Assembly: GCA_963811375.1 (NCBI GenBank)
Contig: CAWEQY010000008.1
Span: forward strand, 34,092-98,091
Length of the DNA stretch: 64,000 nt
From: an uncultured Solirubrobacterales bacterium
GTDB lineage: Bacteria; Actinomycetota; Thermoleophilia; Solirubrobacterales; 70-9
Reading direction: 5' to 3'
In this document: piece by piece, positions 9,596 to 34,044 of the stretch
Layout: each line of letters begins with the position of its first letter
Position numbering within the stretch: position 1 is the stretch's first letter
Translations under genes and position numbers: made by a program
The notes under the pieces: generated by a model
The model's database searches: none
What the model was told of the DNA's origin: nothing
Seen by the model: the letters and a program-made list of their open reading frames with translations, nothing else

Positions 9596-10309
9596 GTGTT
9601 TTCTCGCGCTCATAAAACTCACAGACTGCTCATCGTCGGCCTGGCCCTGGTCGCGTTGCTGTCGCTCCCAAGCGCCGCCTCGCCCGCGGGCCGGATCGTC
9701 GTCTTCGGCACCGACTCCGGCTCGCACCTGAAGGTGACCAGGAGCGGAGGCGACGTCGTGGTCGAGGGGACGATGGCCTCGGCCCGGCCGCAGGGCTGCA
9801 ACCTCACCGCCGGCAACCATGTCGCTGTCTGTCCGATCGCCGGCGCCGGCGGGATCGAAATCGAGATGGGGGCCGGCAACGACTTCGTCGAAGTGCTCGA
9901 CCCACTGCCCTTCACGCTCACCGCCCACCTTGGCGACGGCGAAGACAAGTTCATCGGCAATGCCGAGAAGGACGTCTGCTTCCCCGAGGGATCGAGGCGC
10001 AACCGCTGCATCGGCGAAGGTGGAGACGACGTCTGCATCACCGGCTCCCGCAACAGCGACTGCGTCGGCGGCTCCGGCGACGACTACTGCCGCACGAGCA
10101 CGGGCAGCGACGGCTGCTGGGGCGGCCCCGGCGACGACGTCTGTTACATGGGCCCCGGCCAGGACGGCTGCCACGGCGAAGCCGGCAACGACCGGCTCTA
10201 CGGCGAACACGACCCCGACCAGCTCTACGGCGGCGAAGGTTTCGATTTCTGCGACGGCGGCCCGGGGATGGGCTACTCGCGAGCCTGCGAGGCCGGCCCC
10301 GGCCGCTAG
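9596..10309 (+). CDS. Secreted Cys-rich protein with calcium-binding (RTX-like GGxGxD) repeats
   Basis: GTG at 9596 and signal peptide LLIVGLALVALLSLPSAASPA. The C-terminal repeats are CVGGSGDDYC, CWGGPGDDVC, CHGEAGNDRLYG and LYGGEGFDFC. Confidence 0.6.
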   Translation: MFSRAHKTHRLLIVGLALVALLSLPSAASPAGRIVVFGTDSGSHLKVTRSGGDVVVEGTMASARPQGCNLTAGNHVAVCPIAGAGGIEIEMGAGNDFVEVLDPLPFTLTAHLGDGEDKFIGNAEKDVCFPEGSRRNRCIGEGGDDVCITGSRNSDCVGGSGDDYCRTSTGSDGCWGGPGDDVCYMGPGQDGCHGEAGNDRLYGEHDPDQLYGGEGFDFCDGGPGMGYSRACEAGPGR

Positions 10310-10323
10310 TCGGGCCAGGCTGG

Positions 10324-10360
10324 CCTACAGCCCCATCGTCTTGCCGAGGATCTCCTTCAT
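10324..10360. repeat. attL: left copy of the 37-bp direct repeat flanking the island
   Basis: cctacagccccatcgtcttgccgaggatctccttcat is identical base-for-base at 10324..10360 and 20958..20994. The flanking bases differ on both sides. Confidence 0.85.
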
Positions 10361-10654
10361 GAAGCCCGACCGTGGAAGCTCCGGACCACAAGGGACGTTC
10401 GAGGACATTAATCCCTTGCAAATCGAATTCTTCTGCCGTGACGACGGATGACGGGAGTGACCGCGAGCTAGGGGTGCTGCGTGTCGGAATTGTGTCCGCT
10501 CCTCGCTACGCCGGTCGAGCATCCAGAACTTGGCTAGAGGGACAGGGCGGCCAGGTTCTCAGGCGATCGGCCGGGTCGACTCCAGGTCGCAGGGAGTTGA
10601 GGGACCGACTCCCGTTTCGCGGATCTTGGGAGCCGCGGATATTTTAGGACTGAG

Positions 10655-13645
10655 ATGGGCAAGGGTGCACGGCTACGCGCTGAACGTCGCGGCGAGCAGG
10701 CGCTTCAGGAAAACCTGGAGGGGCTGCTCGAGGCGGTCTCCGAGACGAGAAACGCAGAGGGCATTGCCGAGCTCGTCCAGGAGCGCCCCGAGCTTTTCGC
10801 CCCGGAGGTGCTGGCCCACATTGAAACTGCTCGGGATCTGCCCCACGCAGGCCCCTACCTCGAGCCGATCGGCATGCTTGTGCGCTTCGCGCCAGAAAAT
10901 CCCGAGCGCGCCTGGGAGGCCTACACAGAGGCCCGCGATCTGCTCCAAAGCGCCTTGACGGCAATCGAGCCGCGCTCCGAGGAGCTTGGCTCGATGCTCG
11001 ATCAGCGCCGCTACGACGAGGCGATCGAGGTCGGAGAGGAGGTGCTTTCTCAGGCATTCGCCGACGGCCTCGGACTGGTGGTGATCGAGACCCGAGAGCG
11101 CCTGGTGACCGCCTACCGGAACGCCGAAGGCGGCGACCGGGCTGAGAACATCGAGAAGGCGATCGGTCACGTAGACGAGGTCGTGCAGGCGACGCCGGCG
11201 CCTGACCGGGCCGGCGCGATGATGAATTTCGCCGTCCTGGTCAGCATGCGGCTTAAAGGCGACCCGGCCGAAAACTTCGAGATCGGCGTCGGCGTGCTTC
11301 GCGACGCCCTGGAGGAAGCAAGGCGTGCCGACGATCCGAAAACCACCGCCACGAGCGAGATGAACCTGGCCCGCACGCTTCAGGTGCGCCAGCGCGGCGA
11401 GAAAATCGACAACCTGATCGAGGCTCGCGATCTCTGCCGCCGCTCGCTCACCTTCCGAACGCTTGAGCGTGATCCTGTCGACTGGGCCTACAGCATGCTT
11501 AACCTCGGCGGGATCGAGAACGACCTGATCCCACTCGGCGCAGCCGAAGTCGGCGACGCCGAAGGCCCGCTGCTCGAGTTGATCGAGGCCGGAGAGCAGG
11601 TCGAGGAGAAGTGGCTCCTCGGCTTTGCCCACTCCTCGCTCGGGGCGGTGCACCGTGACGAGGCCCGACGAATACAGCATGCAAGCGAACGGGTCAGCGT
11701 CGGCCCGGGCCGCCCTACGCCGCCGGAGGGGGAGGAGGCCGGACGCCTCGGGCTCGCCCGCCAGCACCTTGAGAGTGGCCTTGGGCTTCTCGACCCGGCC
11801 CGCAACCCCGACACGGTCGGGCGCACCTTGGCTGATCTGGCCGAAGTAGCTGATCACTTCGAGGACGAGGATGAAGCGATCGCTCTCTACCGGACCGCCG
11901 TAGCCCACGTCGACGCCCGACTCGAACCGCGCCTCGCCCGGGATGCAGGCGGACGACTCGGTCACCTGCTCGCCCAGAATGGCGAGTGGGACGATGCCGC
12001 CGCAGCCTTCACGAAGGCCGTCGAAGGGGCCGAGCTGGCGTTTCACGCCCGCTTTGCCACCGCCGACCGAATCGATGAGGGAGAGCGCTCAGGCAATCTC
12101 CCGCGCTGGGCGGCGATCACCATTGCCCGCGCCGGCGACCTAGAGAAAGCGCTTCTCGTCCTGGAGAACGGTCGCACCCGGGAGCTGCGTCGGCGCCTCG
12201 GCGTCGGCAAGGGCGAGTTGGAACTGCTGCCCGATGATGCTCGCGAGGACTACGAAGCCGCGCAGGCGAGCCTTGCCGCGCTGCCGCTCGGCGCCGACTC
12301 CCACGAGGCGGCCTACGTCCTGCAGAGGGTGGTCGCCGCGATTCGGGAGATTCCCGGACGCGAAGAGTTCGGGACCGGCTTCGCCCTCGCCGACGTCTCA
12401 GGCGCGGTCGAGGAGGGTTGTCCGCTTCTCTATGTCGACCCGAGCCCCTACGGAACCATGCTCCTCGCCGCTCACCGTACCGGCGGCGAGGTCCATCTGG
12501 AGACCACGTTCCTTGAGCGGCCGATCGCCTTCGAGGTGCTGATGCACTCGGCTCTCGGTGATTACGAGAGGCTCTTTCGCGAACCGCAGAATCCAGGGGA
12601 GTCGGCTGGATACCTGGCCGCTCTCTCGAACCCCGATTCCGACCCTGATCACCTCGACCGCGCTCTCGTCTATCTGACGGCAACCCTCGGGGAGACCTTG
12701 GCTAAGCCGATCGCCCAGTTCCTAACCAAGCTCGGCGCGGCGAAGGCGACGCTTGTCCTCTGCGGGCCCTTGGCCTTCGCGCCGGTGCACGCGTTCCGGT
12801 GGGAGGAGGATGGCGTGGAGGTCGCGCTCCTCGAGCGCTTCGAGTTGCGCATCGCCCCTTCGGCCACCCTCCAGGGCGCCAGCATCGAACGCGCGGCTGA
12901 GCGCGGCGAGCGCGGGGTCTCCCTGGCGGCGCTCGGAGACCCAGACCTCGACGATCCGGAACTCGACCTGCCGGCGGCGGGCGCCGAGGTGGAAGAAATT
13001 GCAGAGCTCTTTGCCAGGGATTCCCGCGAGTGCGCGTTTCGCGCCGAGGCGACTAGCGCGTTCTTGGAGCGCACCGCCCCTAGCGCATCGCACGTCCACC
13101 TCGCCTGCCACGGCAGCGGCTCCCTTTTCTCTTCGGATGAGAGCGAAGAGCCGCGCATCTACCTCGCCGACCGCGAGGTGACCGGCTCAGAGCTCGTCAC
13201 CCTGGGATTGTCCGCCGACCTCACGGTAATTTCTGCGTGCGAGACGGCTGTTTCCTCGCTTGGCTTTCAGGCTCACGAGGCCCTGTCGTTGGGAGCGGCA
13301 TTTCTCGCCGCCGGCAGTTCGGTCGCCGTTGCAAGCCTGTGGACTGTCGACGACATCGCTACCGCGATGCTGATGGCCCGCTTCTATAGAGAGATGTTCG
13401 AGTCGGGCACCTCGCCGGCCGCCGCGCTGCGCTCAGCCCAGCTCTGGCTTCGCGACCTTGACGAGGATGAAGAGCAGGAATTCCTGGTCGCGCATCCGGA
13501 AATCGAGGAGGCCTATCGCACGCGTGAGCAGGCTGGCGATCGGCCCGGAAGAAGAGGCGCGGCGGGCGCTGGAGCGGTGGTGGCCGACAGGCCTTACGCC
13601 TCACCCGAGTTCTGGGCACCATTCATTTGCTTCGGCGCCGGTTAG
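10655..13645 (+). CDS. TPR-like repeat / CHAT-domain (caspase-like) protease
   Basis: ATG at 10655. The N-terminal ~650 aa are helical-repeat. The C-terminal CHAT domain has a His (SHVHLACHGSG) and Cys (LTVISACETAVSS) dyad and the VASLWTVDDIATAMLMARFY block. Confidence 0.85.
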   Translation: MGKGARLRAERRGEQALQENLEGLLEAVSETRNAEGIAELVQERPELFAPEVLAHIETARDLPHAGPYLEPIGMLVRFAPENPERAWEAYTEARDLLQSALTAIEPRSEELGSMLDQRRYDEAIEVGEEVLSQAFADGLGLVVIETRERLVTAYRNAEGGDRAENIEKAIGHVDEVVQATPAPDRAGAMMNFAVLVSMRLKGDPAENFEIGVGVLRDALEEARRADDPKTTATSEMNLARTLQVRQRGEKIDNLIEARDLCRRSLTFRTLERDPVDWAYSMLNLGGIENDLIPLGAAEVGDAEGPLLELIEAGEQVEEKWLLGFAHSSLGAVHRDEARRIQHASERVSVGPGRPTPPEGEEAGRLGLARQHLESGLGLLDPARNPDTVGRTLADLAEVADHFEDEDEAIALYRTAVAHVDARLEPRLARDAGGRLGHLLAQNGEWDDAAAAFTKAVEGAELAFHARFATADRIDEGERSGNLPRWAAITIARAGDLEKALLVLENGRTRELRRRLGVGKGELELLPDDAREDYEAAQASLAALPLGADSHEAAYVLQRVVAAIREIPGREEFGTGFALADVSGAVEEGCPLLYVDPSPYGTMLLAAHRTGGEVHLETTFLERPIAFEVLMHSALGDYERLFREPQNPGESAGYLAALSNPDSDPDHLDRALVYLTATLGETLAKPIAQFLTKLGAAKATLVLCGPLAFAPVHAFRWEEDGVEVALLERFELRIAPSATLQGASIERAAERGERGVSLAALGDPDLDDPELDLPAAGAEVEEIAELFARDSRECAFRAEATSAFLERTAPSASHVHLACHGSGSLFSSDESEEPRIYLADREVTGSELVTLGLSADLTVISACETAVSSLGFQAHEALSLGAAFLAAGSSVAVASLWTVDDIATAMLMARFYREMFESGTSPAAALRSAQLWLRDLDEDEEQEFLVAHPEIEEAYRTREQAGDRPGRRGAAGAGAVVADRPYASPEFWAPFICFGAG

Positions 13646-13802
13646 TAGGGCCTCGCCTTCGGTTGGTGGGCTCCGAACCGGGCCGTCGGCTGCGATGTGA
13701 CCACGGGGTCTAATCAGCAGAGGCCAGAGTGGAGATGACGGACGCCGATGCCGAGGATCTAAGCCGTGATCTCGTCATTAGAGAAAATGCTGGAAGAAGT
13801 CC

Positions 13803-13828
13803 CTGCAAAGCGGGGGGTCGCTTTGCAG
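13803..13828. terminator. Perfect 10-bp stem / 6-nt loop hairpin between the CHAT gene and the RT operon (possible bidirectional terminator)
   Basis: ctgcaaagcg-gggggt-cgctttgcag. On the minus strand it is followed by a moderately U-rich tract (GGACUUCUUCCAGCAUUUUCUC). Confidence 0.35.
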
Positions 13829-13933
13829 AAATAGATCCTCAAAGGGCCCGCCGAGGAAACGGATCTGACGTGTCCGGATTGTGCCTCTGAGTCGCTCCCT
13901 AGATCATAAAAAACACCCAAATGCAGGGGAAAA

Positions 13934-13969
13934 TCAAAGTCCAAATTGCTTACTGACGATCTCCTTCAT
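13934..13969 (-). pseudogene. Orphan 3' end of an acyl-CoA dehydrogenase-like gene (MKEIVSKQFGL-stop): degenerate internal att-like junction
   Basis: The minus strand reads atgaaggagatcgtcagtaagcaatttggactttga. This compares with MKEILGKTMGL-stop encoded by the 37-bp repeat. gatctccttcat is identical to the inner end of the repeat, and the adjacent arm resembles the arm right of attL. Confidence 0.5.
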
Positions 13970-14146
13970 GAGTTCCGAGCGTGGGACGGGTGGGCACACG
14001 GGATCGTCGGAGGGCAAAGAATCGCCGCAAATGGCTCTCTTTGAGGACGAGGGGGATGATCCGGCGTGGTCGCCCAGGGACCCATAGATATGTCCGTTTT
14101 GTGTTGGCCGATGATGGTTTCGCCCAACGCCTCGGTCGGGGATTGC

Positions 14147-15670
14147 TCAGATCTTTGACCAGCCGAAGGGTTCGCCTCTCAAGGACTTAGCGAGTCGAGC
14201 CAGACTGCGTCCCTCACTCGACCAGCTACTAAAGCGGCCGTCTCGCTCCGGCGCGTTCTTTTCTTGGATAGCTACAAGGGCATACGAAAGCCATGGACGC
14301 GGCGCCTTCGAGAAGAAGTGATCCGCCGCCGAAAAGTCGTGTTCATCCGACTGGCTACCCCAAGCCAAAAGCGCGCGAGCGCGGACCAACGGATGGTCGT
14401 GCTTGATCGCGAGCTCCGCGACTCGGCCAGAAAGTGCTTTCGCTCCACGCGCGGGGATGACTTGAATGGCGCGAAGAATATGAAGCCACTCCTGAGTTCG
14501 GTGAAAACGGTCCGACGTGATGTTGGCCAGGGCAGAAGCAACCTCCTCCCTGTGGTCGCTAGTCGCTAGCGACTCTAGGTACCGACAGGCGGCCGCAGTC
14601 AGGCCAGGCATGCGAAGCAAAACCTGTGGCAGTGCATTGATGGCATGGGGGTGCTTCTCGCGCGCGAGATGTCGAAGCGCGAAGGTGAACTCATTCCGAC
14701 GATATTCATCGTTGCCGAGCGCGTGAACTGCATCGTCGAAAATCGCGCAGACACGATCAAGGCGGATCTCGTCGATCTGATCATCGTCAGGCGCATATTC
14801 ACCCTCCTGCAACTCAGCCAATAGTTGCTCGACCCCCTCTTGCGGGGTCAGCCGGGACAGAACCCGCTCGGATCTCCGGATCCTGGTCTTACCACCCCCG
14901 AGGCTCAAGCCGTCTTCGTACAGCAGCTCCTCGATTCTGTCTAGAAGTTGCCTAGCTTCATGGTGGGTCGGGCAGCTGATTGCTATGTCGTCCATGTATC
15001 GAACGAACGGAACGCCTTCGGCGCGAAGTAGCTCATCGAGTGGGGAGAGGTAAAAGTTCGCCAGGGATGAGGAAGGAGGACTCCCCTGTGGCAGCCCTCG
15101 CACGCCCTGGGCTGCCCATCCGGACAGGAGGCCGCCAAGATCAGTGACCACGCTGCCGTCGCACCCAGCTTCTAGTAGCCGGCGCTCAAGTTGGCTCACG
15201 CTGATGTTTAAGAAGAAACTCGCCACATCAGCTTCGATGACATAGCCGTCGAAAGCATCAAACGCAATCTGATGAAGTGCAATGTTGTAATCAACCCATC
15301 GAGGTGAATCTGCAAATGGGTCGTCCTCGCTAAGCGGGGAAAGCCGATAAGCGAAGACCTCCTCGCGAGACCCCAAGGCATTCTCTATCGGGGTCTTCAT
15401 GGCGTCCACCAAGGCTTGATACAGCAGCATGTCGCGTGGATGGACTCGGACAAACGGGCGAACCGTTGCTTGCCCAGGCTTGGTGGCGGGAACGCGCTGG
15501 ACGCCTTGCACTTGGTGGTTGTTGCAGAGAGCGGGGGAGGAACCCCAGAACCTCGCCGCTACCTCGAACGGCAGCCGATCTGGCACATCCATAATTCCCC
15601 CGCGAACCCGATGCAGAACCCGTTGCCACGACCGATCGATACGCAGTTGATCTAGTGATTTCAGATGCAT
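14147..15670 (-). CDS. Reverse transcriptase with C-terminal HEAT-like helical-repeat domain (UG/Abi- or DRT-like, unclassified)
   Basis: Palm motifs are KPGQATVRPFVRVHPRDMLLYQAL, YVIEADVASFF, RGLPQGSPPSSSLANFYLSPLD, FVRYMDDIAISC (YMDD at 14987..14998) and LSLGGGKTRI. The C-terminal ~200 aa are helical and end in the HEAT/PBS-like HPLVRARALLAWG. An alternative ATG at 15592 follows GGGGGA. Confidence 0.85.
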   Translation of the reverse strand: MHLKSLDQLRIDRSWQRVLHRVRGGIMDVPDRLPFEVAARFWGSSPALCNNHQVQGVQRVPATKPGQATVRPFVRVHPRDMLLYQALVDAMKTPIENALGSREEVFAYRLSPLSEDDPFADSPRWVDYNIALHQIAFDAFDGYVIEADVASFFLNISVSQLERRLLEAGCDGSVVTDLGGLLSGWAAQGVRGLPQGSPPSSSLANFYLSPLDELLRAEGVPFVRYMDDIAISCPTHHEARQLLDRIEELLYEDGLSLGGGKTRIRRSERVLSRLTPQEGVEQLLAELQEGEYAPDDDQIDEIRLDRVCAIFDDAVHALGNDEYRRNEFTFALRHLAREKHPHAINALPQVLLRMPGLTAAACRYLESLATSDHREEVASALANITSDRFHRTQEWLHILRAIQVIPARGAKALSGRVAELAIKHDHPLVRARALLAWGSQSDEHDFSAADHFFSKAPRPWLSYALVAIQEKNAPERDGRFSSWSSEGRSLARLAKSLRGEPFGWSKI

Positions 15671-15690
15671 GAACAGATGTGATTGAGAGT

Positions 15691-15741
15691 GTCGCCCCGC
15701 CCGGACTGTTTAGTCCTGATCCTGGATAGGCCGGGTGCGAC
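15691..15741 (-). other. GC-rich compound stem-loop inside the 88-nt ATPase-RT spacer (candidate RNA element)
   Basis: Minus-strand RNA is GUCGCACCCGG...CCGGGCGGGGCGAC (outer imperfect stem) enclosing GGACU-AAAC-AGUCC. No U-tract follows it, and no Shine-Dalgarno precedes the RT ATG at 15670. Confidence 0.3.
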
Positions 15742-15758
15742 GGATTGCGCTTTAGGAT

Positions 15759-17429
15759 CTAGCCAAACAAGCGAAGGGGGGCATCATCCGGCTCATCTTC
15801 GGTTGATTCAACGATCTCAATGGCCTCCTCGGCCCGGACATCGCCTTCTTGGGCGATGATCCCAGCCGCGCGCTTGAGGTCGTAGACAGGCGCCTCACGA
15901 AGCTTCACTCTGCGACGTTGATCATCGGTTTCCCAGAAGCGGACGATCTCGATGTTGCGCTTTCTTGGCTCCATGAAGAGCGCAAAGTCCAACGTATATG
16001 CCTCGTAACGACCGGGCCTCCCAGACGCGGCGCTCGTGCTGGGATCGACCAGGTGAATCAACTTGAAGTCCATAAGCTGCTGCATCAACTCGTGCGCGTC
16101 GGCATATGCCGCTTTCTGTTCTAGCGGCACCAAAAAAGCCGTCTTGCGCTTCTCCGTCAGGCAAAACTTGACGACGTCAACAAATAGCGCTTCAAGAGCA
16201 GGAACCTCACTTCCCGCGTCCGTCCGGAGATCCTTGAGCTTCGTCTCGTTGCTCAGTGCTGCCGCAGCTCGGCGCAGATCCGTCGGAGTGAGATTCTTTC
16301 TCTTAGGGGTTCGCGCGGCCCGGTCTAGCCCTCCCACGAAGATGTTGAGATAGTCGCGAGGCACGCCCCCAGAAAGCAACACGAGATCCTTGCTGGCTTC
16401 TTCACTCATGATTGAAAGCACGTCCTCCTCGATGCCGACTTGCTTTCCAAGTTCCCGCAGCATCGTTCCGAGATACGCCCCGGTTTGCCCCAGATCTTCG
16501 AGGGTTTGATCGAGGTTGAAGCCGTCCACGTCTTGCTGAATCTGGATTCCTATATGCAGCGGGGTAGTCTCAAGGAGCCGGGTTCTGTGGCGTACCGTTC
16601 CAACCTTGAAATAGAGATCGGTGTCCCGTAGAAGTCGATGAATGTAGTCGATCACATTTGGCTGCACGCCTGAGTCGATTAGATAGAAGTCATCAATGAT
16701 GAACACAGCGAACTCAGCACTGGATTCCTCGATGCGATCCTGGATCACGGACTTGTAATCCGGGAGGCGGTTCTCGATCTCTCGGACCTTTCGCTCGTCG
16801 CTTTCCCGGACTTCTTGGGTGCTTTCACTGCTGGATTGCTCTGAGTCGAGGCTTCCGCCGATCCCTTTGGTTCCGACGGTGGCCCCTGCGCTGTCCTTAA
16901 GGCCTGATGCAGCGTCTTTCGTGACCTTGAGTTTCGAAGCGCTTGGAAGGGAAAGGAGGCCCTTGAGTTCCTTCACCACCTCTTGGACTGGATCGGACTC
17001 ACTGAACAGCCTGGCCTTCAAACGCTTTCCTGCGGACCGCTTTGGAAGCCCTTGAAAAATGGCGAGCAGAAGGCGGAGCAATACATCCGGATATTCCAAG
17101 GTCTTGATGGTGTCCGCGAGGATGTACGCCGAGTGAACGTTTTCCTCGGGCGCTACTTTGTGCCGGTAGTACACGAGGAGGCAGGACTTTCCGCTTCCCC
17201 GGCGACCAAAGACAATCTGATGCTGCCTAAGGGCAATACGGTCGAGATTGCCGGCGACATCCACGTAGACGGGCGTTCTGTTGTCGCGGACGCGAAAGCT
17301 CTCCCGAATTAGCCTTTCGAGCTTTTTCAGTCGCTTATCGTCTAGCTGGATCTCGTTTCCCTCTGCCATTCCGGATAAGGCTATTCGAGCGATTTTCATT
17401 TGGGTCCGTATGGAGTTCTCAAGGGTCAT
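15759..17429 (-). CDS. ORC/Cdc6-like AAA+ P-loop ATPase with C-terminal winged-helix-like region and acidic tail
   Basis: Walker A GRRGSGKS (17184..17207), Walker B FAVFIIDDFY, sensor-2-like SGGVPRDYLNIF. The ATG at 17429 overlaps the upstream HTH gene by 11 nt (ATGACCCTTGA). The ORF track starts at TTG 17438. Confidence 0.8.
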   Translation of the reverse strand: MTLENSIRTQMKIARIALSGMAEGNEIQLDDKRLKKLERLIRESFRVRDNRTPVYVDVAGNLDRIALRQHQIVFGRRGSGKSCLLVYYRHKVAPEENVHSAYILADTIKTLEYPDVLLRLLLAIFQGLPKRSAGKRLKARLFSESDPVQEVVKELKGLLSLPSASKLKVTKDAASGLKDSAGATVGTKGIGGSLDSEQSSSESTQEVRESDERKVREIENRLPDYKSVIQDRIEESSAEFAVFIIDDFYLIDSGVQPNVIDYIHRLLRDTDLYFKVGTVRHRTRLLETTPLHIGIQIQQDVDGFNLDQTLEDLGQTGAYLGTMLRELGKQVGIEEDVLSIMSEEASKDLVLLSGGVPRDYLNIFVGGLDRAARTPKRKNLTPTDLRRAAAALSNETKLKDLRTDAGSEVPALEALFVDVVKFCLTEKRKTAFLVPLEQKAAYADAHELMQQLMDFKLIHLVDPSTSAASGRPGRYEAYTLDFALFMEPRKRNIEIVRFWETDDQRRRVKLREAPVYDLKRAAGIIAQEGDVRAEEAIEIVESTEDEPDDAPLRLFG

Positions 17430-17655
17430 GCCTGTCAACGAGCTTTCCTAGCTCGCCCATCGAGACGCCGAGGGCCACGGCGATCCCTTTGATCGTGCTC
17501 CAAGTGGGGTTTGCCTGGCCGCGCTCGATCAGAGACAGGGTGCCGGTCGTAATGTCGGCGTCGTGGGCTAAATCTTCCTGGGTGAGGCCATGCTTGGCAC
17601 GAAGTTGGCGGATTGCTTCGCCAAGAGCAGGCTGTGGTTGTTCGGAGCGGCGCAT
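17419..17655 (-). CDS. XRE-family helix-turn-helix transcriptional regulator
   Basis: 78 aa with LRAKHGLTQEDLAHDADITTGTLSLIERGQANPTWSTIKGIAVALGVS. It is the first gene of the HTH-ATPase-RT operon. Confidence 0.85.
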   Translation of the reverse strand: MRRSEQPQPALGEAIRQLRAKHGLTQEDLAHDADITTGTLSLIERGQANPTWSTIKGIAVALGVSMGELGKLVDRHDP

Positions 17656-17672
17656 TTGAACACGTTTTCAAA
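17655..17672. promoter_or_regulatory. Near-palindrome abutting the HTH start codon (candidate operator)
   Basis: tttgaacacgttttcaaa has TTTGAA/TTCAAA arms. The AT-rich 150-bp divergent region also has GCTAGAGC (17687..17694) and its complement GCTCTAGC (17731..17738). Confidence 0.3.
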
Positions 17673-17804
17673 CGCGAGCGTCATGGGCTAGAGCATAAAT
17701 AGCTAGCGTTATGTGCTTAGTCCTTGGTAGGCTCTAGCTATCCCAGAAAAGCGCCCCCGCGCTGCGCAAACAGCCGGGGGCATGGCACAGGAGGGTTAGC
17801 TCCC

Positions 17805-18101
17805 ATGCACGACAAGCCTATTGGCGCTGGCGATGATGGCCACGCCTCGACCGCCGCCCAGGATCTTCACGACCAGGGCGTGGTCCTGATCCAAATCCTG
17901 ACGATCTACCCGACGCATCTGCGCCTCTTGGAGCTGGTGCGCGAGATCGGCGCCGGATCGGCCGACTTCTCCGAGAGGGACCGCATCGAACGCGCTGTCC
18001 GCGATCTGATCGGAGTGGGCCTGCTGTTCCGCAGCGACGGGCTCGTATTGCCGACGCGGGCGGCACTCCGCTTCAACGAGATCCTCGGGGAGGGGATGTA
18101 G
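17805..18101 (+). CDS. Small hypothetical protein (possibly winged-helix-like)
   Basis: ORF 17724..18101 is trimmed to the ATG at 17805 (MHDKPIGAGDD...). It lies 2 nt upstream of the next gene. No firm motif recognised. Confidence 0.4.
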   Translation: MHDKPIGAGDDGHASTAAQDLHDQGVVLIQILTIYPTHLRLLELVREIGAGSADFSERDRIERAVRDLIGVGLLFRSDGLVLPTRAALRFNEILGEGM

Positions 18102-18103
18102 CG

Positions 18104-18427
18104 ATGGGGCGCAACGCAGGCCTGCAACGCGAGCAGTTCGCCCGCTGCTTCGGGATCAATCTCGCCAAGGCGCGCGGTGCAGCGGATGTGAGCCAGGACG
18201 AGCTTGCCTTCCGGACCTCGACCCACCGCACGGCGATCAACCAGATCGAGCGCGGCCTGTCCCTGCCGGGCCTCGACTCGGCGATGAGGTTCGCGGCGGC
18301 GCTGGAAACGTCGCTGGATGAATTGGTCGCGGGAATCGAATGGCAGTCGCCAGAGATGCAAATAGGCAAATTCAAAATTCCAGATCCAGAAGAAAATGAG
18401 CCACTACGAACCAGTAGCGAACGATGA
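18104..18427 (+). CDS. XRE-family helix-turn-helix protein
   Basis: DVSQDELAFRTSTHRTAINQIERGLSLPGLDSAMRFAAALETSLDELV. Confidence 0.7.
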   Translation: MGRNAGLQREQFARCFGINLAKARGAADVSQDELAFRTSTHRTAINQIERGLSLPGLDSAMRFAAALETSLDELVAGIEWQSPEMQIGKFKIPDPEENEPLRTSSER

Positions 18428-18758
18428 GCCAGCCAAGAGGCAGCTGCCAGGTCGAAGCCCATCTGTCAGCCCCTCAGGCAGCTACCCAGAGCCCCTACCT
18501 AGCACCCAACCTCAACCCCCGACACACTAGAGACTGGGTTCCCGTGCCCCTCTTCGAGCAGCGTCCAATGACCGGCTTAGCGTCCTCGGCGCGACGGGCT
18601 GACACGACATTTGATGTCGCCCAAGAGGCTGACCGACGGGTCTTGTCGCTCGTCGCGTTCGAGGACCGATGGCGTGACCTGATAGGAGCGTGCAAGAGCC
18701 CCACCCAGTTCTGTCCGCCGTCGATCCGTGACCGCAAGCCACTCCCCGAGGAGCGCCA

Positions 18759-19198
18759 TTGATCACGATCGGCATCGATCCCCACAAGCAAACCAACACC
18801 GCAGTGGCCGCCTCTGACGTCGGCCGCCAGCTCGCCGAGATCACCGTCCCGGCCGACGAGGCCGGCCAGCAGGAGCTGCTCGCCTGGGCCCACGGCCTCG
18901 GCGTCGAGATCCGCTTCGCCCTGGAGGACTGCCGCCACGTCAACGGTCGCCTGGAGCGCTTCCTGACCGCCACCGCTTCGACCGTCACGGCAACCGCCAG
19001 CTGAACGCGGCCTTCTACCGGATCGCCCTGACCCAGGCCCGCGTTCACCCGGGCGCTCGCGCCTACCTGGCCAAGAAGCGCGAGGAGGGCAAGAGCACCG
19101 CCGAAGCGCTGCGTTGCCTCAAGCGCCTGCTGGTCCGCGTCGTCTGGCGGACACTCAGAAGCACCGGTGAGCCCCGCCTTTCTACCTCTCCCTCTTGA
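18759..19198 (+). pseudogene. IS110-family transposase remnant (internal deletion plus frameshift)
   Basis: The N-terminal DEDD block is ITIGIDPHKQTNTAVAAS...LLAWAHGLGVEIRFALEDC (frame 0, stop at 19002). The C-terminal block is RQLNAAFYRIALTQARVHPGARAYLAKKREEGKSTAEALRCLKRLLVRVVWRTL (frame 2, stop at 19196..19198). The roughly 200 central residues are missing. Confidence 0.7.
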
Positions 19199-19493
19199 TC
19201 TTGGAGGGGGAGATCCTTGACACCGTTGGCTCACATAGGAGAGACCCTCCGGATTCGTGCCTGAGCCGCGGCTTGTTGATTCAGAACGTTGGCAAGGTTC
19301 AGCAGCGTTGCTCGTGGCGATCTCGCCCGGGGGACCGGAGTCCCGATTTTGGCACGGCTCCGCCGTGCGGTCGGGCTCCTATGTCCCCTGGTGGAGGGGT
19401 CGCGCAGTGAAGGCGTTGGTGCGTCGGGCTCTCTCTCCTTTCAAAAGCAGGCGATGCATTTCTCGTCTTCGATGGACAGCCAATGCAGAGGAA

Positions 19494-19793
19494 ATGCACG
19501 ACGGCTCCGACACCGAATTCGAGCGGCTTCTGTCCCCAGAGGACGTTGCCCGCGTCTGCGGACTCTCCCGGCGTGCCGTCTATCGGGCGATTGCGCGGGG
19601 GGAGCTTCGAGCCGTGCGAATCTGCCACAGGCTGCGAATCCGTCCAGCGGAGTTGGAGCGCTGGATTGGTGGCCAGGTGAGTTCTTCGGAGTTCCGCAGC
19701 CCCAGACGGCGCAACCGACCTGTTGCCGTTGCTCCGCGTGGCAGCTTGCGGTCGATGCTCAATGAGGCCGACGGCCAAGGCGGCAGTCAGTGA
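19494..19793 (+). CDS. xis: Excisionase-type HTH DNA-binding protein
   Basis: The ORF is trimmed to the ATG at 19494. The sequence LLSPEDVARVCGLSRRAVYRAIARGELRAVRICHRLRIRPAELERWI is excisionase-type. Its stop overlaps the integrase GTG (GTGA at 19790..19793). Confidence 0.7.
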   Translation: MHDGSDTEFERLLSPEDVARVCGLSRRAVYRAIARGELRAVRICHRLRIRPAELERWIGGQVSSSEFRSPRRRNRPVAVAPRGSLRSMLNEADGQGGSQ

Positions 19794-21073
19794 GTGTCGA
19801 GAGGATCGAGCGGAAGGGTGGGGCCGTATGGCGGGTGCGCTGGCGCGATGAGCAGGGGCAGGCGCATTCCAAAGTGATCGGTCGCAAGCGCGACGCGGAA
19901 ACCTTCGACGCCGAAGTCCTGCGACGCAAGCGAACCGGAGATCTCGACCTGCTCACCGGGGGCAGCGAAACGCTCGCCGACTTTGCGGAGGAGTGGTGGA
20001 AGCTGTACGCGGTTCCGAACTTGGCAAGTCGCACGCTGCGCGGCTACGCGGGGCTTTGGGATCGGCACGTCCTGCCGCGACTCGGCGCAATGCGCCTCAA
20101 CGCGATCACTGTCGAGGCGGTCGAGCGCTACCGGGCAGAACTGGAAGGCGACGGCGTTGGGCAGCCGACCATCTATCGAGCGCTGGCGCTGCTTCAGGGC
20201 GTCCTGCGGCGAGCGGTCGAGTGGCGACGGATAGGCCACAACCCGGTCAAGTCTGTCCGGAAGCCGAACGTCCGTCGCCAGCGCGAGGTCCGGCCGGTCC
20301 CTCCCTTCACAGTCGAGCGGCTGCGAGCCGTCGCCGTCGAAAGGCGTAAGCACGGTCCTCGCGATGCCGTCCTGATCGGACTACTCGCCTACGCCGGTCT
20401 GCGACCACAGGAGGCGCTGGTGCTGCGCTGGTCGGACGTGCGTGAGCGGACGCTCTTGGTCGAGAAGGCCGCAGACGGTCAGGGCGGGGTCAAGACGACG
20501 AAGACCGGGCAGGCGCGCACCGTTCGGCTCCTTGCCCCACTCGCCGGTGACTTGACCGAGTGGCGGCTCCTGGGTGGTGAGCCTGACGACGAGGCGCTCC
20601 TTTTCCCAAACGGCAAAGGAGGCATCTGGAATGACCCGGCTTGGCAGACCTGGCATCGCGACTCCTGGCGGCCCGCCTGTCGAGCGATCAGCCTGGAGGG
20701 TGCTCGTCCCTACGACTTGCGCCACAGCTTCGTCTCGTTGCTGATCAGCGAAGGTCGCAGCGTGGTCGACGTGGCCCGCCAAGCCGGACACTCGCCAACC
20801 ATGACGCTCGACGTTTACGCGCACGTCTTCGATGAGTTCGACATCGCCGAGCGGGTGTCTGCCGAGGATCAGATCGAGCAGGCGCGGCGCGATGTGTCCG
20901 AATCGTGTCCGCCTGACGCGGAAGATGGGGTGGAGGGGCAGGAAATCCCCGCTAATCCCTACAGCCCCATCGTCTTGCCGAGGATCTCCTTCATCACCTC
21001 GTCGGTGCCGCCGCCGATCGGGCCGAGGCGGGCATCGCGGACGGCGCGCTCGATGCCGTACTCGCGCATGTAG
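19790..21073 (+). CDS. int: Tyrosine recombinase / integrase (reading frame runs through attR)
   Basis: An N-terminal SAM-like domain is followed by catalytic blocks ARTVRLL, YDLRHSFVSLLI and GHSPTMTLDVYAHV (R..HxxR..H..Y). There is no stop before 21073, so the last ~38 codons lie in the att core and in antisense host DNA. Confidence 0.85.
   Translation: MSVERIERKGGAVWRVRWRDEQGQAHSKVIGRKRDAETFDAEVLRRKRTGDLDLLTGGSETLADFAEEWWKLYAVPNLASRTLRGYAGLWDRHVLPRLGAMRLNAITVEAVERYRAELEGDGVGQPTIYRALALLQGVLRRAVEWRRIGHNPVKSVRKPNVRRQREVRPVPPFTVERLRAVAVERRKHGPRDAVLIGLLAYAGLRPQEALVLRWSDVRERTLLVEKAADGQGGVKTTKTGQARTVRLLAPLAGDLTEWRLLGGEPDDEALLFPNGKGGIWNDPAWQTWHRDSWRPACRAISLEGARPYDLRHSFVSLLISEGRSVVDVARQAGHSPTMTLDVYAHVFDEFDIAERVSAEDQIEQARRDVSESCPPDAEDGVEGQEIPANPYSPIVLPRISFITSSVPPPIGPRRASRTARSMPYSRM
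20958..20994. repeat. attR: right copy of the 37-bp direct repeat
   Basis: Identical to 10324..10360. It covers 1 nt plus the stop codon plus the last 11 codons (MKEILGKTMGL) of the acyl-CoA dehydrogenase at 20959..22137. Confidence 0.85.
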
Positions 21074-22137
21074 CCATAGCCGCCATGAATCTGCAGGGCC
21101 TGGTCGGCGATCTCGAGCAGGGCTCGCTGAGTGACCAGCTTGGTCATGCTGACCTCGCGGATGCACTCCTGGCCGCTGTGGAAGAGGCGCAGGGAGTTGT
21201 AGGTGAGAGCGCGGGCGGCTTCGGCTTGGGTCGCCATCTCGGCGACTTGGTGGCGGATCGCCTGGAACTTGCCGATCGGGCGGCCGAAAGCTTCGCGCTC
21301 CTGCGCGTAGGCGACGGTGGTCTCGATCAGACGCTGCATGCCGCCGATCGCGCCGATCGCCATCAGCAGCCGCTCCCAGGCGAAGTTGGCCATGATCAGC
21401 TTGAAGCCGCCGTTCTCCTCGCCGAGCAGGTTCTCCGCCGGCACCTCGACGTCGGTGAAGGCCAGCTCGCCGGTGTCGGAGGAGTGCCAGCCCATCTTCT
21501 CCAGCTTCGCCGCCACCTCGTAGCCGGGCATCTCGCGCTCGAGGACGAGGAAGGAGATGCCGCCGTGGCCGCCCTCCTCGTTCGTCTTGCAGGCGCAGAC
21601 GAGGAAGTCGGCGCGGACGCCGTTGGTAATGAAGGTCTTGGCGCCGTTGACGATGTAGGCGTCGCCGTCGCGGCGGGCGGTGGTGGTGATGCCGGCGACG
21701 TCGGAGCCGGCGCCGGGCTCGGTGATGCCGAGGGCGCCGATCTTCTCGCCGGCGATCCCCGGCACCAGCCAGCGCTGCTTCTGCTCCTCGGTGCCGAAGT
21801 TGAAGATCGGCGGCATCGCGATCGAGGCATGGGCGTTGAGCCCGGCGGCAACGCCGCCCGAGCCGCCGGAGCGGGCCAGCTCTTCGACCCAGATCGCGTC
21901 GTGCAGATGGGTGCCGCCCTGGCCACCGAGCTCCTCGGGGAACTTGAGCCCGAGGAAGCCCAGCTCGGCGCAGCGCCCGTACAGCTCGCGCGGGAATTCC
22001 CGCGCCTCCTCCCACTCGTCGACGTGCGGCGCGATCTCCTTCGTGACGAAGCGGCTGACGGTCTCCCGCAGCTCCTCGTGCTCCTCGCCGAAGGGGGGGA
22101 GTGGGCGTCGTTGTCCCGTGTCTTTGATGACCGTCAT
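20959..22137 (-). CDS. Acyl-CoA dehydrogenase
   Basis: 392 aa with LGITEPGAGSDVAG, KTFITNG, FGRPIGKFQAIRHQVAEM and GGYGYMREYGIERAVRDARL. Confidence 0.9.
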   Translation of the reverse strand: MTVIKDTGQRRPLPPFGEEHEELRETVSRFVTKEIAPHVDEWEEAREFPRELYGRCAELGFLGLKFPEELGGQGGTHLHDAIWVEELARSGGSGGVAAGLNAHASIAMPPIFNFGTEEQKQRWLVPGIAGEKIGALGITEPGAGSDVAGITTTARRDGDAYIVNGAKTFITNGVRADFLVCACKTNEEGGHGGISFLVLEREMPGYEVAAKLEKMGWHSSDTGELAFTDVEVPAENLLGEENGGFKLIMANFAWERLLMAIGAIGGMQRLIETTVAYAQEREAFGRPIGKFQAIRHQVAEMATQAEAARALTYNSLRLFHSGQECIREVSMTKLVTQRALLEIADQALQIHGGYGYMREYGIERAVRDARLGPIGGGTDEVMKEILGKTMGL

Positions 22138-22189: not shown

Positions 22190-22390
22190 ATGGAGCGGAC
22201 GATGTGGACTGATGAGCGGCTGGACGACATGTCCCACCGGATGGATGCCGGCTTCGATCGCGTGGACAGCGATATCCGGGAATTGCGCAGCGACATCGGC
22301 TCCCTGCGATCGGTGATCATGCAGGTTGGCGTCGGCCTGATGATCGGGATGGCGGGCGTGATCGCCTCGATCCTGGCCAGCAGCCACTAG
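22190..22390 (+). CDS. Small tail-anchored coiled-coil protein (WTD-RLDD family)
   Basis: MERTMWTDERLDDMSHRMDAGFDRVDSDIRELRSDIGSLRSV followed by a C-terminal TM helix. The ATG at 22190 is chosen by analogy with the paralogues; the ORF track starts at GTG 22181. Confidence 0.5.
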   Translation: MERTMWTDERLDDMSHRMDAGFDRVDSDIRELRSDIGSLRSVIMQVGVGLMIGMAGVIASILASSH

Positions 22391-22400
22391 ATCTCCCGGC

Positions 22401-23615
22401 CTAAAGCCCGTAGCTCTTGCCGATCACGTCGAGCATGACCTCGTCGGTGCCGGCGCCGATGCGGTTGAGGCGGACGTCGCGGTAGGCACGCTCGATCTCG
22501 TACTCCTTCATGTAGCCGTAGCCGCCGAGGATCTGGATGCACTCGTCGGCCACTTCGCAGGCGATCCGCGAGGAGAAGAGCTTGGCCATGGTGATCTCGC
22601 GCACCGGGTACTCGCCGTTGCCGAAGCGCCAGGCGGTCGCGTAGGTGAACTGCTTCGCCGCCTCGGTCTTGGTCGCCATCTCGGCGAACTTGTGGCGGAT
22701 CGCCTGGAACTTGCCGATCGGGCGGCCGAAGGCTTCGCGCTCCTTGGCGTACTCGAGGGTCTTCTCGATCATCCGTTCGCAGCCGGCGTGGGAGCCGGCG
22801 GCGGCGACCAGGCGCTCGCCCTGGAGCTCCCAGGCGATGTGGTAGAAGCCTTTGCCGACCTCGCCGAGCACGGCGCTGGCCGGGACGCGGACGTCTTCGA
22901 AGGCCAGCTCGCCGGTGTCCGAGGCGTGCATGCCCATCTTCTCCAGCTCGGCGGAGACGGTGAAGCCGGGGACCGTGTCGCCGTTCTCGTCGCGCAGGTC
23001 GACGACGAAGAGGGTGATGCCGGCGTGACGCTCGTCGGGGTCGGTCTTGCAGACGAGGACGATGAAGTCCGCCCGCGGGCCGTTGGTGATGAAGGTCTTG
23101 GAGCCGTTGATGACGTATTCGTCGCCGTCGCGGATCGCCGTCGTGCGGATGCCGGCGACGTCGGAGCCGGCGCCCGGCTCGGTGATGCCCAGGGAGCCGA
23201 CCTTTTCGCCCTTCAGGCCCGGTTCGAGGTACTTCTTCTTCTGCTCCTCGGTGCCGAGCAGGTGGATCGGGGGCAGGACCATGTCGCTCTGGACCGCGAA
23301 GCCCATATTGGTGCCGCCGGAGCCGGAGTAGCTCATGCACTCGGCGCGGACCAGCGAGTAGAAGTAGTCGCCGCCCTGGCCGCCGTACTCCTCCGGGAAG
23401 CAGAGGCCGAGAAAGCCGAGCTCGCCCGCCCGTTGCATCGCCGAGGTCGGCCAGTAGGTGTCCTCCCACTCGTTGCGGTGCGGCCACAGCTCCTTCTTCA
23501 CCCACGACTCCATCGACTCGCGCAGGTCTTCGTGCTCCTGGCTGAAGATGAAGTGCTTGCGCCCGGCTGCATGGTCGGGCTTGATGACGCTGGAGCCGTT
23601 GGTCGCGGTCGCCAC
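22401..23615 (-). CDS. Acyl-CoA dehydrogenase (second paralogue)
   Basis: LGITEPGAGSDVAG, KTFITNG, FGRPIGKFQAIRHKFAEM and GGYGYMKEYEIERAYRDVRL. The start is set at GTG 23615 behind GGAGAG; the ORF track starts at 23690. Confidence 0.9.
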   Translation of the reverse strand: MATATNGSSVIKPDHAAGRKHFIFSQEHEDLRESMESWVKKELWPHRNEWEDTYWPTSAMQRAGELGFLGLCFPEEYGGQGGDYFYSLVRAECMSYSGSGGTNMGFAVQSDMVLPPIHLLGTEEQKKKYLEPGLKGEKVGSLGITEPGAGSDVAGIRTTAIRDGDEYVINGSKTFITNGPRADFIVLVCKTDPDERHAGITLFVVDLRDENGDTVPGFTVSAELEKMGMHASDTGELAFEDVRVPASAVLGEVGKGFYHIAWELQGERLVAAAGSHAGCERMIEKTLEYAKEREAFGRPIGKFQAIRHKFAEMATKTEAAKQFTYATAWRFGNGEYPVREITMAKLFSSRIACEVADECIQILGGYGYMKEYEIERAYRDVRLNRIGAGTDEVMLDVIGKSYGL

Positions 23616-28918: not shown

Positions 28919-28997
28919 CGTCATTTCGAGTGCCCGCGCCTAAAGGGGTGGGCATGTTTCGGCCGAATTAGAAGTGTTCGTGTCGATCCTGAAAGAT

Positions 28998-30353
28998 ATG
29001 ACGCCGCGCTTGGGCCCGGTGGCGCTCAATGTCGTGGTCGCCTTTGCGCTGGCTGCACTGGCAGGCCAGGCTGAGGCGAAGGTCATCTACGCCTGTGTCC
29101 AGAAGCACGGGACCACCACTCACCGCGCCAAGGCAGCAATGCGCCTGGTGCGCAGGTCCGCCCACTGCCTGCCGTCCGAGCGACGACTGACCTGGGGCGC
29201 ACCCGGGTCGACGAGCTCGGCCGCCCCCAGAGGCCGAGGCCCGAAGGGAGAGCCGGGAGCCGCCGGGGCCCCAGGCGCTCCAGGCGCCACGGGTGCGCAG
29301 GCCCCAGTCGGTTCGCCCGGCGAGACCGGTCTCCCCGGGGCCACGGGGTCGCCCGGCGCGACCGGGCCAGCCGGATCCGCGGGCGCGACGGGGCCAACCG
29401 GTGCGCCCGGTGCGACGGGCCTCCCGGGTGCACCCGGTGCCCCGGGCGCGACGGGCGCAGCCGGGGCTCAGGGCCCAGCCGGCCCGAGTGGAGAAGCCGG
29501 CCCGCAGGGTCCGGCGGGCGCGGCAGGCACGGCCGGGGCTCGGGGACCGGTCGGTCCAGCGGGAGAAGCCGGCGAGGCGGGAGCGTCGGGCCCGGAAGGT
29601 GCGGCAGGGCCCCAGGGCATTCCCGGACTTGAAGGACCAGCAGGGCCAGCCGGCCCGATCGGATTGCCGGGGCCCCAGGGCGAAGCGGGTGCGCCGGGGC
29701 TCGCGGGGGCTCAGGGCGAACCCGGGGTGCCTGGACTCGCGGGGCCTCAAGGCGAGTCCGGTCCGGAAGGGCCCGCCGGTCCAGCTGGCCCCGCGGGCCC
29801 GATTGGACCGATGGGCCCGGAAGGTCCGATCGGCCCGCCCGGGCCGGAGGGATCCCCAGGCCCCGAAGGACAGCCCGGCGCCCCGGGGCCGGAAGGGCCA
29901 CCGGGCCCGCCCGGCGCCGAAGGGTCTCAAGGCCCCCCTGGGCCCAGAGGAGCTGTCGGGCCGCAGGGCGAGCTGGGGCCGCAGGGCGAACCGGGGTCAC
30001 AAGGTGAACCCGGGGTGCCAGGCGAACCCGGCCCGGAAGGACCGGCGGGCACCGGGGGCATCGCCAAAGTGATCGTGGTCACCGCTCACGGCGGTGAAGG
30101 CGCGCCCGCCGATGCGACCTGCCCGAAAGAGCTGCCCCTGGCGATCGCCGGCGGCAGCGCCCTCGACGACAAGGGTGGGGTCGTCTCGATCTCGGCGCCG
30201 ATCACCGAACACGAACTCTCGAAAGACGGCCAGCAACCCGATGGCTGGCGGACCAAGGCAAGCGCCGGCAGCTATACGGGGTACGCGATCTGCACCGGCA
30301 GCGGCAGCAAGGGATCGGGCGAAGAATCGGGCGAAGGCCCCGTAAAGAAGTGA
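28998..30353 (+). CDS. Secreted collagen-like triple-helix-repeat protein
   Basis: Signal peptide ...[16 protein letters not shown]. There are about 90 Gly-X-Y triplets (29238..30056 by hand count) with one APV interruption, then a ~95-aa Cys-containing C-terminal domain. The start may be ATG 28998 or GTG 28974. Confidence 0.85.
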
Positions 30354-33954: not shown

Positions 33955-34044
33955 CCGACCTAGCTTACGCCCCGGCCTCAGCCGTGCTGTAAGCGTTTCT
34001 CTCCGGTAAGCGAAGAAGTGCGCCCGCAGCAGTAGCCTGAACCG

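Follow-up and report, generated by a model that had tools for sequence, protein, structure and literature searches.

The locus analyzed here raises the question of why the end of an acyl-CoA dehydrogenase (ACAD) gene is found twice, 10.6 kb apart, in a 64-kb stretch of DNA from an uncultured Solirubrobacterales bacterium (contig CAWEQY010000008.1; hereafter, the window), and of what the DNA between both copies represents. The initial annotation of the window suggested that a tyrosine-integrase island had inserted into the 3' end of the ACAD gene and had regenerated this gene end. This central reading holds, and there is a real mobile genomic island in the last 11 ACAD codons of this soil actinobacterium. 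The same annotation considered it to be a single, compact island of 10.6 kb, and this part needs to be revised, since a decayed element with a CHAT gene and an intact 7.0-kb element can be distinguished, with a third attachment (att)-like site between them. It is likely that the region corresponds to a tandem of two site-specific integrative elements, E1 and E2, that belong to one family with a lambda-type tyrosine integrase and an excisionase and that occupy the same attB, namely, the ACAD 3' end. The resulting layout is attL, E1 (10361-13932), a hybrid att site, E2 (13970-20957), and attR.

The 37-bp repeats that delimit the island were found to be perfect, as had been claimed. The sequence CCTACAGCCCCATCGTCTTGCCGAGGATCTCCTTCAT is present in two exact plus-strand copies in the window, at 10324-10360 and 20958-20994; this number remains two when up to three mismatches are permitted, and none of 100 shuffled sequences contained a match. 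Its reverse complement, ATG AAG GAG ATC CTC GGC AAG ACG ATG GGG CTG TAG G, encodes MKEILGKTMGL and is followed by the stop codon and one additional nucleotide. The right copy, the attR core, provides the functional last 11 codons, the stop codon, and 1 nt of the ACAD gene (20959-22137, minus strand; 392 amino acids), the product of which contains all three Acyl-CoA_dh Pfam domains, in agreement with the earlier proposal that this repeat is the end of an intact gene. The left copy, the attL core, is an orphan ACAD 3' end that encodes the same 11 residues and stop codon. It is located 14 nt downstream of the stop codon of the left host flank gene, which encodes an RTX-type calcium-binding repeat protein of 237 amino acids (9596-10309, plus strand; Pfam HemolysinCabind). 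The element is thus bounded by direct repeats, one of which completes the ACAD gene, as expected for an element mobilized by a tyrosine integrase. No tRNA gene and no Rfam match were detected in the whole window, and simple promoter and terminator scans of the window returned results at or below shuffle expectation. A second ACAD paralogue (22387-23505, minus strand) lies 1.4 kb past the target gene, with which it shares 72 to 77% nucleotide identity; no insertion is present at its 3' end, the identity of which to the att core is only 65%.

Relatives that lack the insertion were identified by a search with the ACAD protein, which retrieved 80 orthologous loci (82 to 94% identity; designated here by L numbers), nearly all of them from Solirubrobacterales metagenome-assembled genomes. 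The locus L001 carries an empty site, in which one copy of the identical 37 bp, the attB, is located between convergent ACAD (94% identity) and RTX (85% identity) genes. A bare ACAD-RTX junction, with the RTX orthologue 10 to 66 bp from the ACAD stop codon, was observed in L001 and in five further loci (L002, L003, L005, L017, and L052), and these correspond to the unoccupied attB expected in relatives of a tyrosine-integrase element. Both checks proposed in the initial annotation therefore came out in its favor: an insertion-free relative has a single identical copy, and the repeat is not a generic one, since its occurrences in the 80 related loci were confined to ACAD ends and the far borders of inserted elements. 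Other loci are filled. Homologues of int and xis (72 to 84% identity) directly follow the ACAD stop codon in L030, L042, L044, L045, L056, L061, L064, L073, and L079, and L010, L049, L062, and L077 contain int fragments. In about 17 loci, a second copy of the ACAD end is located 0.5 to 8.9 kb away, and the repeat begins at the ATG of MKEILGK in every case. Based on these int-xis genes, int fragments, and second ACAD ends, at least 20 of the 80 loci are occupied or scarred by a homologous xis-int element or its remnant.

Clustering of the open reading frames (ORFs) of these elements revealed a conserved backbone that comprises int, xis, an HTH_3 regulator (HTH, helix-turn-helix), a protein of about 100 amino acids termed fam4, and a divergent Cro/CI-type HTH gene. 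This backbone accounts for only about 3 kb, and the remainder of each element is variable cargo. At the ACAD site, the cargo of the sibling elements differs between genomes and is largely of the defense type: SIR2 and HerA in L042, PDC-M68/ABC-3C in L010, a multi-ubiquitin protein with E2 and E1 in L073, a RES toxin and a protein with a TIR-effector match in L061, and a PIN toxin domain with a small upstream ORF in L030 and L044. L079 contains a TrwC relaxase, a sigma factor, and an RHS protein. The cargo of L064 (13022-19893) is unusual in that it encodes a Ser/Thr kinase together with two DUF488 proteins, a dCTP-deaminase-like protein, and a truncated adenylosuccinate-synthetase (PurA)-like protein; the dCTP-deaminase-like and PurA-like proteins, the two that were scanned with PADLOC, were not recognized. 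Several cargo genes of the family have no family assignment. A close relative of the window element was found in L081, the int of which is 95% identical to that of the window; it possesses the same backbone, a wholly different cargo, and no insertion sequence (IS) remnant. The left flank of L081 harbors an RHH-PIN toxin-antitoxin pair (162-853) for which the window has no counterpart, and the left flank itself is therefore also variable.

The recombination genes are found at the attR end of E2, where the coupled xis-int pair that had been reported to abut attR (19494-21073) was recovered. The xis gene (19494-19793, plus strand) encodes an excisionase or recombination directionality factor of 99 amino acids (Pfam HTH_17, 1.5e-12; PHROG 66 excisionase), and copies with 55 to 70% identity adjoin int in relatives. 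Its stop codon overlaps the start codon of int in the sequence GTGA. The int ORF (19790-21073, plus strand) encodes a tyrosine integrase of 427 amino acids that matches the phage integrase family PF00589 (6.6e-14), the SAM-like family PF14659, and PHROG 1 (3.2e-61). The alignment with XerD covers residues 148 to 349, the region of the catalytic residues, which were located by eye in the motifs GLR, LRHSF, GHS, and YAHV, the last containing the tyrosine, and which follow the pattern R...HxxR...H...Y.

Sequences with the arrangement of attP arms were identified next to the cores. Nine elements share a conserved stretch of about 140 bp immediately inside the distal core, past which their sequences are unrelated. 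The 20-nt motif TGTGTCCGNATNGTGTCCGC matches the window twice in the same orientation, at 20893-20912 (no mismatches) and at 10480-10499 (two mismatches), as compared with a chance expectation of 0.06 in the window. The former match, TGTGTCCGAATCGTGTCCGC, is the int-side (P2) arm-type motif, which lies inside the 3' coding region of int, 45 bp before the core, and has the same position in the 11 relatives that retain the int 3' end. The motif is bipartite, GTGTCCG-N4-GTGTCCGC, and is found on both core sides; its distances in relatives are 45 bp to the int-side core and about 119 bp to the distal core. It was not found in the empty sites of relatives. In L089, where a tRNA-Thr gene is targeted by an int that is 57% identical to that of the window, the layout is kept and both half-sites have changed together to GTACCCG. 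From their sequence, these candidate arm sites would fit the pattern expected for binding by an integrase arm-binding domain. L089 (6262-6409) and the window (20880-21010) have GCWAATCCC at the P side in common, as well as CCTTCAT at the gene-internal boundary; in the tRNA, this corresponds to the anticodon stem. These likenesses hint at the route by which this clade was retargeted, from a tRNA gene to the ACAD end.

The comparison of 13 attL/attR pairs showed that the gene-internal border of identity is fixed at (TC)ATGAAGG and that differences build up toward the stop codon; the 7-bp overlap sought by this comparison in the 13 loci was narrowed no further than to the gene-internal end of the block. 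Elements that restore a gene 3' end have their crossover at the gene-internal end of the identity block. Strand exchange at the ACAD site would accordingly take place at this end, within TCATGAAGGAGATC, and in that case the final ACAD codons of an occupied site would be supplied by the element. Since attP carries a copy of the ACAD end, the gene is intact after insertion. At residue -4 of the ACAD protein, 27 of the 80 loci have a threonine, and all but one of these show neither a second ACAD end nor a trace of int, whereas L, Q, S, G, or R is present in every occupied locus except the window. The latter residues are also found in many loci with no visible element, and they could reflect either a lineage effect or scars left by gene ends that elements had supplied. 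As judged from the aligned sequences, the pattern is consistent with final codons that derive from the element in occupied sites.

Several lines of evidence argue for two elements in the window. The internal hybrid att site (13933-13969; ATCAAAGTCCAAATTGCTTACTGACGATCTCCTTCAT) is a second orphan ACAD end with low-GC codons, the reverse complement of which encodes MKEIVSKQFGL and a stop codon. Only GATCTCCTTCAT is identical to the other cores, and an independent repeat search placed the site in the same core family, D4, at 65% identity. The internal site has the complete att layout, namely, a P arm motif, a 45-bp spacer, the core, and a P' arm. The P arm motif (P1; 13869-13888) is the decayed int-side motif of E1, which is located 45 bp before the internal core and aligns with the int-side arms of the window, L081, L030, and L064; it has retained the first half-site GTGTCCG as well as the 45-bp spacing. 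On the other side of the core, the P'2 arm of the intact E2 (13970-14108) contains a motif-like site at 14089-14108 and resembles the attL arm of L081. The L081 attL core and its adjoining arm match the window at 13938-14033 (83% identity over 96 nt, E = 4e-23) and not at the outer attL. The P'1 arm of the decayed E1 (10361-10500) follows the outer attL core and carries the arm-type motif CGTGTCGGAATTGTGTCCGC at 10480-10499. E1 is a remnant with no integrase, the sole cargo of which is a TPR-CHAT gene, and E2 is an intact 7.0-kb element in which the reverse transcriptase (RT), an ATPase, a 78-amino-acid HTH regulator (HTH78), fam4, a 107-amino-acid HTH regulator (HTH107), the IS110 remnant, xis, and int follow each other in the order of the window. 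The GC content, about 66 to 69% over the CHAT gene and 55 to 59% over the E2 cargo, agrees with this division. E1 is flanked by att sites, has a P' arm and a decayed P arm, lacks int, and adjoins E2, all of which are features of the remnant known as a cis-mobilizable element (CIME).

As a possible course of events, an older E1 with the TPR-CHAT gene and its own core, MKEIVSKQFGL plus stop, would have integrated and then lost int, so that it came to resemble a cis-mobilizable element. E2 would have integrated afterwards into one of the E1 att sites, giving rise to attL-E1-hybrid att-E2-attR; the reverse order of arrival would yield an identical structure. The sibling in L082 (3075-10632) has three ACAD-end cores, at 3075, at 8881, and, in degenerate form, at 10596, and is a second example of tandem accretion at the ACAD site. 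Its cargo consists of an ATPase homologue, a GTPase-like remnant, and a PIN toxin domain that has a small ORF next to it.

The E1 cargo protein (10655-13645, plus strand; 996 amino acids) contains a CHAT domain (Pfam, 1.4e-48) and TPR repeats, and a homologue (57%) was found in an Abi-rich island of L087. The RT of E2 (14147-15670, minus strand; 507 amino acids) has a YMDD motif and a C-terminal HEAT-like repeat. In PADLOC, it gave nearly full-length matches with RT_UG22 (1.9e-54), Drt8 (3.9e-50), and RT_UG21 (1.4e-49), and in Pfam it matched RVT_1 (4.3e-16) and, weakly, HEAT_2. With a YxDD RT domain and a C-terminal alpha-repeat, it belongs to class 1 of the UG/Abi reverse transcriptases as defined previously (PMC9226505). 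The usual partner of UG22 is a HEPN-like gene, and the defense scores of UG21 and UG22 were inconclusive (PMC9226505). The neighbor of the RT is an ORC/CDC6-like ATPase and gave no HEPN match in PADLOC or Pfam. The gene for this P-loop ATPase (15759-17438, minus strand) encodes the Walker A motif GRRGSGKS and has a weak match with PF24389; its start is probably at 17399, as in a 546-amino-acid database copy. The ATPase family has 569 matches; its members are lone genes in the three other loci inspected (L083 to L085), and L082 carries a 79% identical copy and no RT. The idea that RT and ATPase form an obligate pair can be ruled out, given that the ATPase is a lone gene in three unrelated genomes and that L082 has it without an RT, and both genes are therefore probably independent cargo. 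The initial annotation had described the cargo as defense-like, which holds by the family resemblance of the RT, ATPase, and CHAT proteins and by their neighborhood. The RT and ATPase of E2 as well as the TPR-CHAT protein of E1 most likely serve anti-phage defense.

The regulatory genes occupy the middle of E2. HTH78, a Cro/CI-type regulator (17419-17655, minus strand; Pfam HTH_3, 2.3e-14; PHROGs repressor families; backbone family 1), heads the cargo strand and is divergent from the excision-side genes. These begin with the conserved small backbone protein fam4 (17724-18101, plus strand), which is present in six sibling elements (33 to 91% identity), gave no match in Pfam, PHROGs, or PADLOC, and has its likely start at an MHD motif near 17802. 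HTH107 follows (18104-18427, plus strand; Pfam HTH_3, 5e-11; backbone family 1). By means of its divergent HTH genes, E2 may switch between its cargo side and its excision side. The 3' end of fam4 (18075-18109, encoding a C-terminal FNEILGEGM) is 71 to 79% complementary to the att core in inverted orientation; this similarity is absent from the fam4 genes of the sibling elements and is therefore probably due to chance. The IS110-family remnant noted earlier (18530-19243, plus strand) is internally deleted and measures 714 bp. It is recognizable by two frame fragments that match DEDD_Tnp_IS110 (27.5 bits) and Transposase_20 (24.9 bits), and it corresponds exactly to the stretch that is absent from L081.

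The tandem has to be weighed against other origins of the region. One is a single 10.6-kb island in which CHAT, RT, and ATPase are one cargo and 13933-14108 is a fossil segment acquired within it. The outer cores are identical in 37 of 37 positions as compared to 65% for the internal core, and the whole unit could move by its outer sites, composite tandems being known to transfer as a unit (PMC5704250). However, the internal site shows the full succession of P arm motif, 45-bp spacer, core, and P' arm. Its P' arm is typical of the family (83% identity to L081), and among all the arms compared, the outer P' arm diverges the most. Since, in addition, the L081 element with its 95% identical int ends exactly at an internal-type site, a single island is considered unlikely. 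Still less credible, and close to negligible, is the notion that the region is ancestral, that relatives like L001 have lost it by deletion between the repeats, and that the repeats are a duplication unrelated to site-specific recombination. Homologous deletion between the 37-bp repeats would indeed leave one copy as well, but the genes next to the repeat encode an intact integrase and excisionase, the arms are conserved, the cargo inside the same borders is completely different among genomes, the GC content is atypical, and the bare ACAD-RTX junction is found in six loci.

The genes for mobility bear on another alternative, a minimal phage satellite or degraded prophage that is induced and packaged by a helper phage, as opposed to a passive island or one associated with conjugation. 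The int-xis pair together with the divergent Cro/CI-like HTH pair is reminiscent of a phage-type switch, and the small size (5 to 9 kb) and defense cargo of the elements resemble those of satellites. PHROGs matches were restricted to int, xis, the HTH regulators, the RT, and a weak match of CHAT with one regulator family. For the island ORFs covered by the Pfam and PHROGs scans, no capsid, tail, terminase, portal, primase, packaging, relaxase, type IV secretion system (T4SS), FtsK-like, or replication genes were detected, which bears out the earlier statement that capsid, tail, terminase, relaxase, and T4SS genes are lacking, and no relative of the integrase was present in 2.9 million viral contigs. 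In L079, a gene for a TrwC relaxase is located some 1.3 kb past int-xis and points toward mobilization by conjugation, although the search gave no far boundary for the L079 element. Taken together, a phage satellite is quite improbable, less so than an ancestral region and more so than a single island. The same scan provided neither a T4SS nor a match with FtsK-like TraB plus Rep, the hallmarks of an integrative and conjugative element (ICE) or its actinomycete form (AICE), and no relaxase, as in an integrative and mobilizable element (IME), was detected in the Pfam scan of the window. An island with no relaxase, T4SS, or packaging genes would need a helper for transfer between cells, and helper-dependent or cis-mobilized transfer is the most likely route.

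A number of observations weigh against the tandem model as proposed above. The internal site has only 12 nt that are exactly identical to the other cores, and E2 may have lost the ability to excise on its own. L086 has a CHAT homologue (79%) at the ACAD end with no recognizable att repeats, where only the gene itself is shared, so that CHAT may have been at this locus before the events assumed for E1. With the IS110 remnant between them, the regulator genes and xis-int may no longer be expressed in a coupled manner. The defense role of the RT, ATPase, and CHAT proteins is deduced from family resemblance and neighborhood only. Finally, neither an exact attP junction nor an empty attB of the same strain was found in metagenome contigs, which is a weak test because assemblies rarely capture circles. 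Further observations concern the same genes. In L086 (8001-14385), the CHAT homologue directly follows the ACAD 3' end with no traces of int or att, and the two ACAD paralogues, separated by no more than a short spacer in the window, have a DUF445 gene and an Abi_alpha gene between them. No int-bearing sibling with CHAT was found when the ACAD site was searched for one, and the CHAT gene of L088 is on an unrelated int element.

A particular property of the family is that the int ORF lacks a stop codon within the island, so that it extends across the attR core and terminates only 114 nt into the ACAD gene, which is on the opposite strand. Homology to known integrases stops at about residue 350, and the 3' part of the ORF then runs through the arm motif (encoding DVSESCPP), a variable linker, the core (YSPIVLPRISF), and 79 nt of antisense ACAD; residues 390 to 401 are encoded by the core and residues 402 to 427 by antisense ACAD. 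All sibling int ORFs end at the same host position. The int clade comprises about 60 database clusters of approximately 426 to 440 amino acids, and all 13 full-length sequences sampled from the ACAD-site clade end in the same host-encoded tail with minor substitutions, one of them at a different residue; 11 of these 13 tails correspond to ...ITSSVPPPIGPRRASRTARSMPYSRM with at most one residue difference. In L089, the int ORF continues into the tRNA gene, and the tails of P0090 and P0082 resemble a translation of tRNA sequence. After excision, the int ORF is predicted to run about 33 codons into the P' arm, the peptide consensus of which is MSxEHGTGGHAGSSEGKDxxQMSLFE followed by an acidic end. 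The pN/pS ratio (nonsynonymous to synonymous polymorphisms) of the P' arm, determined for 7 and then 13 arms, was 0.64 to 0.65 in the frame of the int tail and 0.66 to 0.87 in three other frames, a difference too small to set the int-tail frame apart, and column variability by codon phase gave a weak signal.

It is a rather doubtful, speculative possibility that this swap of tails, 26 host residues in the integrated state against some 33 P'-arm residues in the excised state, alters the stability or activity of Int and would then be a built-in sensor of the integration state that biases the direction of recombination. The convergent overlap of int and ACAD could be similar in its effect. With SSV-type integrases and lambda sib, the encoded C-terminus or 3' end likewise depends on whether the element is integrated or excised; in contrast to the SSV integrases, the catalytic domain of the window int is not split. 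In the integration-dependent immunity of the mycobacteriophages BPs, Brujita, and Charlie (PMC3694055), the att core is likewise within an ORF and the C-termini differ between the integrated and excised states, whereas at the ACAD site the ORF that is crossed is int itself rather than a repressor and no degradation tag is recognizable. If true, the tail swap would amount to an integrase-borne counterpart of integration-dependent immunity or of retroregulation by lambda sib.

AICEs of the pSAM2 type have a xis-int-attP module, rep and FtsK-like tra genes, and tRNA genes as targets. The window island shares with them the order of xis, int, and attP at the int 3' end, the high-GC actinobacterial host, and an integrase of the heterobivalent type with arm sites, but it possesses no rep or FtsK-like tra genes and its target is a protein-coding gene. 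L089, with its tRNA-Thr target and a Toprim gene, looks nearer to the AICE type. The closest parallel to the arrangement at the ACAD site is the accretion described for ICEs, IMEs, and CIMEs, in which integration is followed by decay to an att-flanked remnant and by entry of a second element into an att site (PMC5704250). ICESt1/ICESt3 and CIMEs at the fda 3' end of Streptococcus thermophilus likewise depend on a tyrosine integrase acting at the 3' end of a protein-coding gene, which is regenerated, and integrase-less, att-flanked remnants in the order attL-remnant-attI-element-attR (PMC5704250) are seen in the window and in L082. The host phylum (Solirubrobacterales, Actinomycetota) and the target gene are different here, the window elements have no conjugation or relaxase genes, and the internal att is strongly diverged on one side. 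A conserved backbone with a variable defense slot is also a property of defense-carrying integrated elements and hotspots (PMC10201445; P2 and P4 as cited in PMC9226505), although the backbone at the ACAD site measures only about 3 kb and is devoid of replication, packaging, and transfer genes.

Outside the island, the window encodes a collagen-like protein of 459 amino acids with long GXY repeats (28974-30353, plus strand), which accounts for a GC peak of 75 to 78% and for tandem repeats of 18 to 72 nt. A 1310-amino-acid ORF (30931-34863, minus strand) resembles, by eye, a multidomain regulator of the STAND type in which cyclase-like, P-loop, and TPR-like parts are combined.

A literature search found no description of ACAD as an attB. 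The present analysis does not overturn current understanding; it adds a new host group and a new target to a known mechanism. It provides a clear actinobacterial case of accretion and decay at an attB within a protein-coding gene, in which the element would supply the final codons of a host enzyme. The int gene and att parts could become a site-specific integration tool for a poorly tractable group of bacteria. Furthermore, this study defines a family of small integrative elements in Solirubrobacterales, an abundant soil order that entered the comparisons only as metagenome-assembled genomes, with a precise attB, attP arms, and a backbone of about 3 kb. The variable slot of these elements, which holds SIR2 plus HerA, ABC-3C, ubiquitin-like conjugation, UG/Abi RT, and toxin-antitoxin pairs together with genes that have no family assignment, is a place to look for defense genes.

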